NCBI GenBank assembly: GCA_964608465.1
Contig: CAZSNI010000004.1
Coordinates: 1 to 41,836 of the forward strand
Direction of reading: 5' to 3'
Source of the DNA: an uncultured Candidatus Saccharibacteria bacterium
GTDB taxonomy: Bacteria; Patescibacteriota; Minisyncoccia; Phycocordibacterales; DATDWN01
DNA: 41,836 nucleotides
The notes beneath the pieces were generated by a model that did no database searches, had not been told where the DNA came from, and saw nothing but the letters and a program-made list of their open reading frames with translations. Shown in pieces: positions 8,302-39,796 of the stretch. Position 1 is the stretch's first letter, and each line of letters opens with the position of its first letter. A program made the position numbers and the translations under genes.

Positions 8302-10467
8302 ATGCCGAAAAATCTAATTAAAAAACACGGGTTAAGAAACATCCTTATTTTTGCTGTTTCTTCAGGTATCATTGTGATGGGAATGCTCATTATATGGGTA
8401 TCTACGTTCAAAATCCCCTCTCTAGACACCATAGAAGCCAGAAAAATAGGTCAATCCACAAAAATCTACGATAATACAGGTAAAATACTACTATACGATG
8501 TATTCCAAAACGCAAAAAGAACAGTGGTACCTTTTGAGGAAATATCTGAAAATATAAAATCAGCCACAGTTTCTATAGAAGATAAAGATTTTTATACACA
8601 CAGTGGTTTTAAACCAACATCTTTTATTAGAGCAATTGTGGTCAACACTTTATCTGCAGAATACTCACAAGGAGGATCAACGATAACCCAGCAGGTTGTG
8701 AAAAACTCTCTATTAACAGGAGACAAAAGTTTTCTAGGAGGCCCAACAAGAAAACTTAAAGAAATAGCTCTTTCACTTAAACTAGAAAAGGTTTTGTCTA
8801 AGAATGAAATTCTTTCTATGTATCTAAATGAGAATCCTTACGGTGGCACAATATATGGAATAGAAGAAGCTAGTCAGGCTTTTTTTGGAAAATCATCAAC
8901 TGATGTAACGTTGGCCGAAGCCGCTTACCTAGCTGCAATACCACAAGCGCCGACAAGACTTTCACCTTATGGTCAAAACAAAAACAAACTTGATGAAAGA
9001 AAGAATTTAGTTCTAAAGGAAATGTTAGAGGACGGCAAACTCACTCAAGAACAGTACGAGGAGGCAGCATCTGAAGTTGTTACATTTCTACCAAAATCAA
9101 ATTCCGGTATAAAAGCTCCGCACTTTGTAATGTTTGTAAAAGACTACTTGGAAAGAAAATACGGAAAGGATGTTATTGAGCAAGGAGGACTTAGAGTTAC
9201 AACTACTCTAAATTACGAATTACAAGCAAAGGCTGAAGAAATAGCACTAAAATACGCAACTATAAATGAAAAGAATTTTAATGGCAAAAACGACGCATTT
9301 GTTGCAATAGATCCAAAAACAGGAGGAATATTGACGATGGTTGGTTCTCGAGACTATTTTGACAAGACCATGGATGGTAATTTCAATGTAACAACAGCCC
9401 ACAGACAACCTGGTTCAACGTTTAAACCTTTTGTTTATGCGCAGGCTTTAATAAAAGGTTATACATCTGAGACTGTTTTATTTGACTTAAAAACTCAATT
9501 TTCAACAAAGTGCCCGAAAGAAAACCTGACAAGCGAGAATGGTTGTTACTCCCCTAACAACTATGATGACAAGTTTAGAGGGCCAATGACACTTCGCGAA
9601 GCTCTGGCACAATCAATAAACGTACCCGCTGTTAAAACTCTATACTTAGCTGGAATCAAAGAATCAATCGCACTAGCAGAAAGCATGGGAATAACTGGCC
9701 TAGGTGATGCAAATCAATATGGGTTAACTTTGGTTCTTGGAGGTGGAGAAGTTTCTCTTCTTGAAATGACTTCTGCATATGGAGTCTTTGCAACAGAAGG
9801 AGTTAGAAATCCTTATGTAAGCATACTTAGAGTTGAAGACAGTACAGGAAAATTACTTGAAGAATATAAACCTCGACCAACAAAGGTATTAGATGCTGAA
9901 GTAGCAAGGAGTATATCTGATATATTATCTGATAATGTAGCCAGAACTCCTTTATATGGAGCAAACTCAGCTATTTACTTTGGAGAAAGACAGGTAGCTG
10001 TAAAAACTGGTACTACTAACGACTATAAAGATGCTTGGACTATTGGATACACACCTAATGTGGTAGTTGGAACATGGGCTGGAAATAACGACAACACTTC
10101 TATGGAGAAGAAAGTTTCTGGCCTTATAGTTGCTCCAATGTGGAGAGCCTTTATGGATGAGGTATTAAAAACAATACCATCTGAGAACTTTAATAAGCCC
10201 CAAAACGAAGATTCTTATGAAATAAAACCTGTGCTTAGAGGTAAGTGGCAAGGTGGTATATCAAGTGTTGTAAACAATGATTCTTCTGTAGATATACCTT
10301 ATAACTCAGTTCAAGAAACATTAAGTGGTGGAGTACACTCTATTTTATACTGGCTAGATAAAGATAATCCTAGAGAAAATACTGAAGTCATACCTGAAAA
10401 TGATCCTCAGTTCGAAAGATGGGAATACCCTATTAGATTATGGGCAACTTCTCAAGGACTGCAATAG
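8302..10467 (+). CDS. Class A penicillin-binding protein (GT51 transglycosylase + transpeptidase)
   Basis: EDKDFY, GGSTITQQVVKN, RKLKE, EILSMYLN; STFK, SIN, KTGT. Start placed at ATG 8302 (TGt-TAAAAT 7 nt upstream) because the track start at 8131 overlaps tyrS. Confidence 0.93.
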   Translation: MPKNLIKKHGLRNILIFAVSSGIIVMGMLIIWVSTFKIPSLDTIEARKIGQSTKIYDNTGKILLYDVFQNAKRTVVPFEEISENIKSATVSIEDKDFYTHSGFKPTSFIRAIVVNTLSAEYSQGGSTITQQVVKNSLLTGDKSFLGGPTRKLKEIALSLKLEKVLSKNEILSMYLNENPYGGTIYGIEEASQAFFGKSSTDVTLAEAAYLAAIPQAPTRLSPYGQNKNKLDERKNLVLKEMLEDGKLTQEQYEEAASEVVTFLPKSNSGIKAPHFVMFVKDYLERKYGKDVIEQGGLRVTTTLNYELQAKAEEIALKYATINEKNFNGKNDAFVAIDPKTGGILTMVGSRDYFDKTMDGNFNVTTAHRQPGSTFKPFVYAQALIKGYTSETVLFDLKTQFSTKCPKENLTSENGCYSPNNYDDKFRGPMTLREALAQSINVPAVKTLYLAGIKESIALAESMGITGLGDANQYGLTLVLGGGEVSLLEMTSAYGVFATEGVRNPYVSILRVEDSTGKLLEEYKPRPTKVLDAEVARSISDILSDNVARTPLYGANSAIYFGERQVAVKTGTTNDYKDAWTIGYTPNVVVGTWAGNNDNTSMEKKVSGLIVAPMWRAFMDEVLKTIPSENFNKPQNEDSYEIKPVLRGKWQGGISSVVNNDSSVDIPYNSVQETLSGGVHSILYWLDKDNPRENTEVIPENDPQFERWEYPIRLWATSQGLQ

Positions 10468-37489: not shown

Positions 37490-37589
37490 TGTCCCAATAG
37501 GATATCACACAATATAGGCATTTGCAAGCCTTTTTATATCGAATCCAATACTAACCGTGTCGCACAATATTTGGTATAATATTTTGGTA

Positions 37590-38540
37590 ATGGCTTCTCT
37601 TAAACAACTAAAGCAACAGTTTCTGGAGTATATCGAGATTGAAAGAGGCCGATCCCTTAAAACTGTTGAAAATTACGACCACTACCTTAGTCGTTTTATG
37701 GATTTTACCAAAAATGACAACCCAGCAAACATAACAGATCAGTCGGTGCGAGAGTTCCGTTTATGGTTAAACAGACAAACTATTGGTGACAAGCGTAAAC
37801 CAAACGACACCTTGTCGAAAAAAACTCAGAACTACTATCTGATTGCCCTTCGTGCTTTCTTGAAATACCTAGCCCGCCAAGAAATAAAAACTTTGCCTGC
37901 AGAGAGGATTGAACTAGCAAAGGTAGGAGAAAGGTCTCTCGATCTTATCACCGACCTCGAACTCGGAAGACTTCTCGACTCCCCTAAGGGAACAGAACTC
38001 AAAGATTTGCGCGACAGAGCGATACTCGAGCTACTTTTTTCTACTGGTCTTCGTGTTTCTGAACTCTGTGCACTGACAGCAGATATAGATTTAAGTTCTG
38101 ATGAGCTTTCTGTGAGAGGAAAAGGAGGAAAAGTCAGAGTGGTTTTCCTTTCTGATACAGCTAAAAAGGCTGTGCGGGATTATCTGACAAAAAGAAAAGA
38201 CTTCAACGATGCGCTTTTTGTTCAGGTGGGCGTTGAGGTTAGAAAGAAAAAGGATGAAGAGAAAAAATCTAAAAACAAAAGTACTCTTGAAACAGGCGCT
38301 CTAACTAAAAGATCAGTAGAGAGAATTGTTAAACAGCATGCTATAAAGGCCGGAATTTCTAAAAAAGTTACTCCCCACACAATTCGCCACCTTTTTGCTA
38401 CAGGGCTTCTTTCAAATGGAGCAGACATACGTTCTGTCCAAGCGATGTTGGGACACTCTAGTATTATAACTACGCAAATCTATACCCATGTGACTGACAA
38501 GCACCTACGAGACACCCACAAAAAGTTTCATAAAAGATAG
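37590..38540 (+). CDS. XerC/XerD-family tyrosine recombinase
   Basis: All catalytic motifs present: GLRVSE, GKGGK, HTIRH, LGH, TQIYTH; N-terminal SAM-like domain; start placed at ATG 37590. Confidence 0.92.
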   Translation: MASLKQLKQQFLEYIEIERGRSLKTVENYDHYLSRFMDFTKNDNPANITDQSVREFRLWLNRQTIGDKRKPNDTLSKKTQNYYLIALRAFLKYLARQEIKTLPAERIELAKVGERSLDLITDLELGRLLDSPKGTELKDLRDRAILELLFSTGLRVSELCALTADIDLSSDELSVRGKGGKVRVVFLSDTAKKAVRDYLTKRKDFNDALFVQVGVEVRKKKDEEKKSKNKSTLETGALTKRSVERIVKQHAIKAGISKKVTPHTIRHLFATGLLSNGADIRSVQAMLGHSSIITTQIYTHVTDKHLRDTHKKFHKR

Positions 38541-38551
38541 TATTGAATTAC

Positions 38552-38623
38552 TTGACAATATATACATACTATGCTATAGTATACGTAGTAAGTTATGTTT
38601 GGCATTCCGCCAAGCACAGGAGG
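38552..38623 (+). promoter_or_regulatory. Near-consensus sigma70 promoter and strong SD of the high-GC gene
   Basis: TTGACA (38552-38557), 17 bp, TGc-TATAGT (38575-38580); AGGAGG at 38618-38623, 5 nt before ATG 38629. Confidence 0.85.
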
Positions 38624-38628
38624 TTCCA

Positions 38629-38904
38629 ATGCGCCACATCTGTCTCGATTGCCGCAAGTTCGTCTCGTTTGCCGACTCGATGCCTGCCGCGGGCCGCCCG
38701 GGTCGCGTCCACCGACCGAACCTCGGATGCCAGAAGAAGCACGCCGAAGCCGGTAAGGTCGTCACTCAGGTCCAGAAGCCCGTGGTCGTCGCCCTCAAGG
38801 TGCTCGACAACCAGTTCCACGGGAACTTCGGTCTCCGGCCGGGCCAGTTCAGGCTTCGTTCCGGCATGGTGGTGACTCCACCCGCTCGTCACACGTCGGC
38901 CTAG
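38629..38904 (+). CDS. High-GC 91-aa hypothetical protein with Cys/His motifs
   Basis: 74/91 codons end in G/C by manual count; AGGAGG SD; HICLDC...GCQKKH. Confidence 0.8.
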   Translation: MRHICLDCRKFVSFADSMPAAGRPGRVHRPNLGCQKKHAEAGKVVTQVQKPVVVALKVLDNQFHGNFGLRPGQFRLRSGMVVTPPARHTSA

Positions 38905-38925
38905 AAGGACGACGACACCGAGATC

Positions 38926-38967
38926 AGCTCGGCTCACATCAACTCGTTTGGTGAGAGTCGAGCTTTT
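38926..38967 (+). terminator. Intrinsic terminator of the high-GC unit
   Basis: AGCTCGGCTCAC...GTGAGAGTCGAGCT followed by a T-run. Confidence 0.7.
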
Positions 38968-38994
38968 CATTTACATAATTTTTTTATGTTAAAC
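38968..38994. other. dif-like Xer recombination site candidate (5-nt spacer)
   Basis: CATTTACATAA-TTTTT-TTATGTTAAAC; right arm is 10/11 identical to the E. coli XerD arm TTATGTTAAAT; also overlaps the xth -10 box. Confidence 0.35.
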
Positions 38995-39001
38995 TACTTT
39001 T

Positions 39002-39796
39002 ATGAAAATTATCTCTTGGAATGTAAATGGAATACGTGCGGTTCACAAGAAGGGTCTACTTGTGCCTTTTGTTGAAAAATACAAGCCAGACATTCTTTGC
39101 CTGCAAGAAACCAAGGCACAACAGGATCAAAGTGAGGTAGATTTACCTGATTACTCTGAGTATTGGAATTCTGCTGTGAAAAAGGGCTACAGTGGTACGG
39201 CTATTTTTACAAAAGAGGAACCAATATCTGTCGTACTAGATTTTCCTACTGATATTTTAAAAAAATACAAACTAGAGGATAAATACGGCGATCCAAACAC
39301 TGAAGGAAGAATAATAGTTGCGGAGTTTTCGGTTTTTTACCTTATAACTGTCTATACACCGAACTCAAAAGATGATTTGTCTCGAATTCCCCTAAGACAC
39401 AAGGGCTGGGACAAGGCATTTTTAGAATACGCACAAAAGCTTGAAAAGAAGAAACCAGTTATTTTTTGTGGGGATTTAAATGTTGCCCATACAGAGGACG
39501 ACCTGGCTCGCCCAAAGGAAAACGTTGGCAAAAAAGGTTTTACCTCTGAGGAACGTGAGGGAATTGATAACTTTATTAAAGCTGGTTTTGTAGATACATT
39601 TAGACTTTTCACAAAAGGAAATGGTTTTTACACTTGGTGGAGTAACTTTGGTGGTGCAAGAGAAAGAAATGTGGGTTGGAGAATAGATTATTTTTTTGTG
39701 AGTAATAAAATAAAAGAAAAAGTTAAACAAGCAAGAATTCATCCAGATATTTTAGGGTCGGATCACTGCCCTGTCTCTATAGAAATTGAAATCTAA
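39002..39796 (+). CDS. xth: Exodeoxyribonuclease III / AP endonuclease
   Basis: ISWNVNGIRA, LQETK, GDLNVAH, GWRIDYF, GSDHCPV. Confidence 0.95.
   Translation: MKIISWNVNGIRAVHKKGLLVPFVEKYKPDILCLQETKAQQDQSEVDLPDYSEYWNSAVKKGYSGTAIFTKEEPISVVLDFPTDILKKYKLEDKYGDPNTEGRIIVAEFSVFYLITVYTPNSKDDLSRIPLRHKGWDKAFLEYAQKLEKKKPVIFCGDLNVAHTEDDLARPKENVGKKGFTSEEREGIDNFIKAGFVDTFRLFTKGNGFYTWWSNFGGARERNVGWRIDYFFVSNKIKEKVKQARIHPDILGSDHCPVSIEIEI

Follow-up and report, generated by a model that had tools for sequence, protein, structure and literature searches.

A probable stand-alone, persistently GC-rich transcription unit with an orphan zinc-ribbon gene in a Paceibacteria chromosome

Why does a short block of 65% GC stand between two housekeeping genes of an AT-rich bacterial genome, and what has kept it GC-rich? 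The block occupies positions 38552-38972 of a stretch of 41,836 nucleotides (nt), hereafter the window, which is contig C4 (GenBank CAZSNI010000004.1) of the metagenome-assembled genome G000 (649 kb, 38% GC, 86% complete). Relatives of G000 are labelled Paceibacterota, Nomurabacteria or Parcubacteria, and the organism occurs in metagenomes of wastewater, groundwater and drinking water. The block lies between xer, which encodes an Xer-type tyrosine recombinase, and xth, which encodes exodeoxyribonuclease III, and holds a single gene for a 91-residue protein, P0001; we refer to the whole as a cassette. Throughout, G denotes genomes (G000 being the window's own), L extracted loci, X metagenome runs and P proteins.

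An original prediction, made from the letters of the window, had taken the cassette for a gene captured from a high-GC organism. Comparison with relatives and independent metagenomes leads us to favour another interpretation: the cassette is probably a genuine stand-alone accessory transcription unit, moron-like but chromosomal, which carries an orphan, genus-restricted zinc-ribbon gene and is persistently GC-rich. What is new here is an orphan family of small zinc-ribbon proteins, together with a hypervariable cargo slot between xer and xth.

A complete transcription unit in an AT-rich window

The cassette comprises a promoter, a leader, a Shine-Dalgarno (SD) sequence, an open reading frame (ORF) and a terminator, and contrasts at 65% GC with the 36% GC of the window. 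Recounting reproduced exactly the compositional jump given in the original prediction, from 13/60 GC at 38521-38580 to 40/60 at 38641-38700, as well as a GC content at third codon positions (GC3) of 74/91 in the P0001 ORF (45 C and 29 G, about 0.81-0.82). In a 200-nt profile, GC peaks at 0.64-0.65 over the island, compared with about 0.37 on either side. G000 has one copy of the island and, as had been noted, there is no transposase or phage context around the gene.

Because the source is metagenome-assembled and the compositional boundaries are sharp, a high-GC read joined into an AT-rich contig had to be considered. However, both island junctions are covered by contigs that come from other, independent studies and biomes (X6, 38524-38684 and 38711-39225; X3, 38501-38578 and 38607-39031), so the island is not chimeric. 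A drinking-water metagenome, X11, further contains a 599-nt contig at 53x coverage with a diverged allele (about 87% identical) in the same slot, and homologous cassettes are present in four other species; an assembly chimera is refuted.

A sigma-70-type promoter occupies 38552-38580 on the forward strand, with TTGACA at 38552-38557, a 17-nt spacer and TGcTATAGT at 38572-38580. Its -10 hexamer, TATAGT (38575-38580), carries a TG extension, and the promoter matches the consensus at 11 of 12 positions, making it one of just 15 consensus extended -10 sites in G000. In the X11 allele the -10 is a perfect TATAAT (38579 G>A), and near-identical promoters precede the family members in G016, G024 and G044. 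From the position of the -10, transcription would start at about 38588, giving a predicted leader of about 41 nt (38588-38628) that contains an 8-bp hairpin at 38596-38616 (dG -12.1, z = -2.0, which is weak support) and an AGGAGG SD at 38618-38623, 5 nt upstream of the ATG at 38629. The X11 allele carries two changes in the 3' arm of this hairpin (38613 A>G and 38614 G>A), and both pairs are retained. The SD had been described as the only well-spaced AGGAGG before a gene start; such sites are indeed rare, with 38 in the whole of G000, but the window holds a second one, before an ORF at 9331. Sixty-one per cent of the 38 precede ORFs with a GC3 of at least 0.5, an enrichment whose test is partly confounded by composition.

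Downstream of the gene, an intrinsic-terminator-like structure at 38926-38972 consists of a 16-bp hairpin (38926-38963; dG -24.7 kcal/mol, z = -3.8) followed by the T-rich tail UUUUCAUUU; it was found by folding energy, and a strict stem/loop pattern scanner did not call it. Equivalent hairpins sit 3' of every family member, and in the pair G016/L069 the terminator stem contains a compensatory change from A-T to G-C. At the level of sequence, then, a single ORF is enclosed by its own promoter and its own terminator, as in an autonomous unit. The earlier description, one self-contained gene equipped with a near-consensus promoter, strong SD and terminator, is borne out.

Coding capacity and the P0001 family

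The coding sequence (CDS) runs from 38629 to 38904 on the forward strand, stop codon included, at 65% GC, and is delimited by translation and by comparison with the X11 allele and the family. The 24 listed CDS substitutions in the X11 allele fall at codon positions 1, 2 and 3 in the ratio 5/4/15 (P = 0.003); 12 of the codon changes are synonymous and 8 non-synonymous, and residues C5, C8, H28 and C34 are all kept. In the best-matched pair of family members, P0002 (from G024) and P0007, 20 of 29 differences are at third positions, with a ratio of non-synonymous to synonymous divergence (dN/dS) of 0.12. This substitution pattern is direct evidence that the GC-rich block codes for protein. In the X11 allele, 66 unrelated letters also stand in place of the final 12 codons and the beginning of the 3' untranslated region (3'UTR; window positions 38868-38919), so the extreme C-terminus of P0001 (MVVTPPARHTSA) is not conserved between close alleles.

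In AT-rich genomes, a GC-rich island that follows a strong promoter is often a stable RNA, and we therefore weighed whether the block is mainly a structured non-coding or dual-function RNA with an incidental ORF. Such an RNA would fit the perfect conservation of the promoter-leader and 3'UTR of the cassettes in G024 and L150 while their CDS diverges, and the fold z-score of the whole region is about -2.2, although it is so on both strands and is uninformative for GC-rich sequence. Rfam, however, gave nothing in the window at the gathering threshold and nothing relevant at E <= 10 within 38400-39100, nor is any of the 20 strongest GC islands of G000 a known RNA; ARAGORN reported only the flanking tRNA at this region. 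The third-position bias in the forward frame and the low dN/dS argue against an incidental ORF, as do zinc ligands that are invariant and a C-terminal peptide motif that is kept across members divergent in nucleotide sequence. A largely RNA-level function thus retains a very small probability. We also rejected a 125-residue antisense ORF (38593-38970) as the gene: it has no Pfam match, and the third-position sites of the forward frame, where substitutions are concentrated, are its first codon positions.

The N-terminal module of P0001 (residues 1-36, 38629-38736, forward strand) follows the pattern C-x2-C-x2-F...P-x-P-G-G-x2-R-[RV]-H-x3-G-x-G-C-x-K, with four ligands spaced C-x2-C-x19-H-x5-C. 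These ligands, C5, C8, H28 and C34, are invariant in 14 sequences as well as in the X11 allele, as in the zinc-ribbon/treble-clef class. Of the zinc site first proposed, the CxxC part (C5, C8) is conserved, but the C-x3-H arrangement (C34...H38) is not what the family conserves. Near the other end, N66-V82 (NFGLRPGQFRLRSGMVV; 38824-38874, forward strand) corresponds in the family alignment to a C-terminal motif, typically G-[FI]-N-x-[LM]-A-x-A-[FL]-x-[RK]-[AS]-G-[IV], that forms a short helix. P0001 is basic, as predicted (isoelectric point (pI) 11.2; 15 K+R against 4 D+E), and the pI of the whole family lies between 9.5 and 11.2.

AlphaFold models of P0001 and P0002 share a 3-4-stranded N-terminal unit with a predicted local distance difference test score (pLDDT) of 75-92. 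In P0001 this is a three-stranded sheet, at pLDDT 86-92 over residues 1-30; in P0002 the same module is followed by a long helix (41-73) and a short helix (78-86) that coincides with the C-terminal motif. The structure search that had been suggested, run with Foldseek on both models against PDB and BFVD, returned generic zinc knuckles only, none of them significant (E >= 0.065; PDB E >= 0.5), and the family has no match in Pfam, PHROGs, NCBIfam, PADLOC or PDB sequences; none of these libraries gave a match bearing on the effector, anti-defence or toxin role that had been proposed. We read P0001 as a small basic cytoplasmic protein in which a predicted zinc ribbon of the Cys2-His-Cys type is joined through a linker, flexible or helical, to a short C-terminal helix motif. 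Small prokaryotic proteins with zinc ribbons or zinc fingers include the gyrase inhibitor YacG and the haloarchaeal CPxCG micro-proteins. The P0001 family resembles these in its size (60-110 residues), its single four-ligand knuckle joined to a tail that would contact a partner, its basic charge and its lack of an enzymatic domain, but its ligand pattern and C-terminal motif match no described family in the libraries searched. We tentatively suggest that P0001 may be a small binding factor with a strain-specific role, perhaps in conflicts that involve phages, competitors or hosts. In this scheme the zinc ribbon would attach to a core machine or to nucleic acid, while the C-terminal helix would contact another partner.

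P0001 used alone as a query found nothing in a word-indexed search or in Pfam; the family was uncovered by whole-genome six-frame searches of relatives, followed by profile searches. Six-frame matches comprised a 90-residue ORF in G024 whose N-terminus is like that of P0001, and a 60-residue ORF in G006 that lies in the xer-xth slot itself. Profile searches of the relatives added members in G016 (two, in tandem) and G044, and a profile search of 1.84 billion protein cluster representatives added just seven further small proteins, of 71-110 residues; two long matches, P0008 and P0013, proved spurious, being tandem-repeat proteins whose score was summed over the repeats. Members occur in 5 of the 41 species of the genus (g1), and none was found in 400 other genomes of the order (223 genera) or in 13 other genera of the same family. 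Phage, plasmid, IMG/VR and metagenome-contig searches likewise gave no relatives of P0001; the family alignment is too divergent for pattern-based locus searches, and the GC-rich members are only 25-45% identical to one another. Every relative with a readable context lies among chromosomal housekeeping genes of the Paceibacteria type, and the contig of one member, P0011, has 52% GC and is otherwise like that of the candidate phyla radiation (CPR). P0001 and its relatives form an orphan family that is restricted to a single Paceibacteria genus (Patescibacteria/CPR).

Just upstream of the tandem pair in G016, the minus strand of L040 (961-1313) holds two overlapping ORFs of 65 and 69 residues at about 47% GC, each read as CxxC...CxxC, which may be another small zinc-protein family in a variable region.

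Cassette slots among conserved genes

All family members are discrete GC-rich islands that are built alike: a promoter of the form aCTTGACA-N15-TGnTAnnAT, a leader of about 50 nt with a small hairpin, a GGAG-type SD, the ORF and a strong hairpin terminator. These islands occupy four slots, namely xer-xth (G000, G006 and the X11 allele), clpP-rny (G024, L150 and the contig of P0012), 2-Hacid_dh-EamA (G044 and L063-L066) and, as a tandem pair, a site beside a SWIB gene (G016, L069 and L067). In G000 the clpP-rny slot is empty (337 bp, 29% GC), no GC island lies near the SWIB gene, and 6.7 kb of AT-rich sequence (36% GC) separate the 2-Hacid_dh gene from EamA. Filled and empty clpP-rny sites differ by a simple insertion whose junctions show neither a target duplication nor a terminal repeat.

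In the window, xer (37557-38540, forward strand, 327 residues in the ORF list) ends 11 nt before the cassette, and xth (39002-39796, forward strand, also from the ORF list) follows it. The adjacency of the two genes is conserved across the genus and the order, and xth has orthologues in 37 of the 41 relatives. A probable extended -10 of xth, TGtTAAACT, lies at 38987-38995 on the forward strand; the TATGTTA motif that marks it precedes xth in L009, L010, L012, L016 and L020, and it is this recurrence that suggests a -10 function. Because TATGTTA is present at filled and empty sites alike, cargo appears to land after the stop codon of xer and ahead of the xth promoter. As observations on the flanking gene itself, xth is in two adjacent pieces separated by an in-frame TGA in G009 (G009:C14:38415-39187), and its N- and C-terminal parts lie on separate contigs, C3 and C6, in G012, which suggests either pseudogenisation or assembly breaks at the locus.

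Presence and absence between xer and xth, which had been proposed as a check, is patchy. The slot is empty, at 2-25 bp, in at least seven relatives, measures about 150 bp without an ORF in G002, and holds small, mutually unrelated ORFs in about 12 others; in related genomes found in X3 and X11 it has only 18, 57 or 147 letters, and the empty-site joint is present in X3. As the slot is empty in most relatives, the cassette is not an ordinary syntenic gene, and the refuting pattern named beforehand, close syntenic orthologues of similar GC across the clade, was not borne out. The cargo itself is of several kinds: it is GC-rich with its own TTGACA promoter, SD and terminator in L016, L024 and L034, and AT-rich in L020 and L022. 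That of L016 is a membrane-anchored ORF of 139 residues (GC3 0.69) behind TTGACA-17-TATAAT and a GGAGG SD, that of L024 a reverse-strand ORF of 211 residues with several CxxC pairs, and that of L022 an AT-rich toxin-antitoxin pair like RelE/ParE. The cargos of L014, L016, L017, L021, L022, L024 and L034 show no likeness to one another or to anything in G000, and we accordingly rejected a shared cargo pool.

The start of the cassette 11 nt past a tyrosine recombinase gene, cargo that differs among species and a GTTAAAC string at the right edge raise the possibility that the recombinase inserts integron-like cassettes at an attachment site. Integron cassettes end in an attC site, usually contain a promoterless ORF and always lie beside an integrase with attI. 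Small units of one gene each, differing in content and placed beside a tyrosine recombinase gene, do recall that arrangement, but P0001-type units have their own promoters and terminators, no attC-like repeat or other end sequence is common to the cargos, and the family is also found in three further slots that have no recombinase close by. The recombinase here is moreover a conserved housekeeping Xer-type protein that is read towards the slot, not divergently from it, and GTTAAAC is part of the conserved xth -10 element that is present at empty sites too. Integron-like insertion is largely refuted and keeps only a scant chance; insertion of integron or transposon type was set aside for the further reason that filled and empty sites differ by no repeats or duplications at their junctions. 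The unit itself lacks mobility genes and is bounded by neither terminal repeats nor target duplications, and gain, loss and replacement would probably follow the uptake of DNA that recombines within the conserved genes on either side.

A closer parallel is the moron, reportedly defined in work by Hendrix and Juhala as an autonomous promoter-ORF-terminator unit between conserved genes of lambdoid phages such as HK97 and HK022. Like a moron, the cassette has one ORF with its own promoter and terminator between conserved neighbours, is present or absent between close relatives, is atypical in composition and has no mobility genes of its own. Unlike a moron, it lies in a bacterial chromosome among housekeeping genes (xer and xth here, clpP and rny elsewhere), has no PHROG match and no phage or IMG/VR relatives, and is GC-rich across saturating divergence, which makes it more than simply 'foreign'.

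This layout could point to an unsampled, GC-rich Paceibacteria mobile reservoir, be it phage, plasmid or higher-GC sister lineage, that re-seeds chromosomes so often that there is no time for decay. The contents of the xer-xth slot in G000 and G006 fit such replacement: the flanks are 93-95% identical (xth with 93% protein identity, dS 1.41 and dN 0.036), whereas the slot genes are 27-28% identical (dN about 0.94, GC3 0.82 against 0.56) and their promoters, leaders and terminators cannot be aligned, which would reflect either replacement of one member by another or very fast divergence. One member, P0011, also lies in the contig of 52% GC. Against a reservoir, searches of viral and plasmid sequences found no relatives, all recovered contexts are chromosomal housekeeping, no GC-rich contig with a family member was found, and the cassettes of G024/L150 and G016/L069 have diverged in place along with their flanks. 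We consider re-seeding from a reservoir quite improbable.

Probably long-lived GC-richness of the transcribed part

The GC-richness covers the transcribed part only, and it is probably long-lived and not the relic of a recent import. The two P0001 alleles, from G000 and X11, have GC3 values of 0.84 and 0.875; the pair P0002/P0007 has 0.86 and 0.90 at a dS of 0.38, and more distant pairs have 0.86 and 0.73 at a dS of about 1.0 and 0.61 and 0.61 at about 1.6. Seven of the 20 third-position differences between P0002 and P0007 are C<->G transversions, an excess expected if A/T variants are removed while exchanges of G and C are tolerated. A GC-rich sequence decaying under AT-biased mutation should also outpace the genes of its host at silent sites, and the cassette does not: its dS is 0.38, where that of the clpP fragment beside it is 1.26 and that of the adjacent rny fragment about 0.4, the latter taken from a positional mismatch list of 11 differences that are all in one codon phase.

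The untranslated parts behave differently from the CDS. Between G024 and L150 (L003 1285-1356 and 1630-1745 against L150 406-520 and 764-850), the promoter with its leader (115 nt) and the 3'UTR with its terminator (87 nt) are without differences, while the CDS differs at 10.6% of sites and the outer spacers and genes at 8-20%; the untranslated parts of this pair are thus under stronger constraint than the silent sites of the cassette. The leader does vary between P0001 and its X11 allele, unlike in G024/L150.

Translational selection does not account for the high GC3. EF-Tu, RpoB, RpoC and S12 have a GC content of 0.06-0.13 at four-fold sites (EF-Tu 0.06), against 0.22 for the bulk genome and 0.76 for the P0001 CDS, and they favour C in two-fold NNY codons (0.57-0.74); this housekeeping codon bias is strong and unusual for such a small genome. 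Since P0001 lies opposite to these highly expressed genes at four-fold sites, we rejected translational selection as the cause. We infer that the GC-richness would instead be held by selection, or by biased repair or conversion, acting on the DNA or the mRNA.

Atypical GC is the textbook sign of recent horizontal transfer, after which amelioration towards host composition is assumed. The cassette shares with such islets a sharp compositional break, a patchy distribution and an intergenic hotspot, but no donor is detected, GC3 does not decay over a dS of 0.4-1.6, and the break coincides with a transcribed unit in a genome where about one in ten ORFs has the same property. It is on these grounds, the lack of outside homologues and the sustained GC3, that the claim of capture from a high-GC organism or host finds no support. 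The main rival to a persistently GC-rich unit is nevertheless a related one: recent or repeated capture from a high-GC donor, such as the host of an episymbiont, followed by slow amelioration, in which the GC-rich members would be separate imports and the less GC-rich ones older imports. All three codon positions of P0001 are indeed enriched in GC (0.67/0.46/0.82), and the gene is patchy in its presence. The donor should, however, have left traces. Members that are 25-45% identical would require many imports from a diverse donor family, which databases should show, and there is no homologue outside the clade among the 1.84 billion representatives or in phages, plasmids and IMG/VR; silent-site rates that are not above those of host genes, equal GC3 in lineages 1.6 apart in dS and the over-representation of C<->G changes tell in the same direction. 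Import with slow decay is kept as the main rival because the substitutions are unpolarised and the family GC3 forms a gradient, and we regard it as unlikely.

Several points do weigh against our interpretation. The spread of GC3 in the family, from 0.89 to 0.38, can be read as an amelioration series, and with two alleles per cassette and unpolarised substitutions, slow decay from a still GC-richer ancestor of GC3 about 0.94 is possible; a higher-GC relative, as indicated by the 52% GC contig of P0011, could act as a source. No RNA-seq run containing the cassette sequence was found. For the protein, the C-terminal motif of P0001 is degenerate and its C-terminal half is modelled at pLDDT 50-63, and the proposed function is read from architecture.

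The original prediction had further proposed that the gene might belong to a wider class of solo GC-rich cassettes, and the genome supports this. ORF GC3 in G000 is bimodal, with about 600 ORFs at 0.2-0.4 and about 85 at 0.5-0.75, and of the 15 consensus extended -10 promoters, 11 stand before units whose GC content is 50% or more, where the background is 4.1% (P = 6e-13). The P0001 unit fits this class: its ORF is GC-rich, has a strong promoter, an SD and a terminator of its own, lies in a gap between AT-rich housekeeping genes and varies among relatives. A literature search found no publication that describes persistently GC-rich cassettes of this kind.

The second most GC-rich unit of G000 (L050 234-477, C6:8683-8926; 67% GC, 244 nt) has a near-perfect minus-strand promoter, TTGACA...TGCTAATAT, at C6:8979, no convincing ORF with a start codon on the minus strand and no Rfam match; it could represent either a very short cassette or an RNA gene not yet catalogued. 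Separately, ARAGORN called 32 tRNAs in G000, one with the anticodon TTA (labelled 'Stop', which would read UAA) and others with the unusual anticodons Ser-ACT, Ala-AGC and Ile-TAT; these unusual calls could be mispredictions or a suppressor-like tRNA.

A possible, if speculative, generalisation is that two compositional equilibria coexist in one 0.65-Mb genome, strongly promoted accessory units being actively held GC-rich. Four-fold-site GC would then be about 0.6-0.8 in these units, about 0.2 in the bulk genome and about 0.06 in the top housekeeping genes, with the transcribed unit as the boundary. The force would act on DNA or mRNA, and would be neither translational selection nor recent import; candidates are nuclease resistance of structured GC-rich mRNAs, avoidance of AT-rich restriction targets in DNA that is often exchanged, and strongly GC-biased conversion limited to exchanged cassettes.

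The family stays at a GC3 of 0.6-0.9 in genomes with silent sites near 0.2-0.3. If our interpretation is true, calls of horizontal transfer based on composition would be misleading for a whole class of genes in candidate-phyla genomes, and an unrecognised force would be shaping the base content of accessory units that are strongly expressed in ultra-small symbionts. Strain-specific genes of uncultivated Paceibacteria can be sampled at the xer-xth slot.

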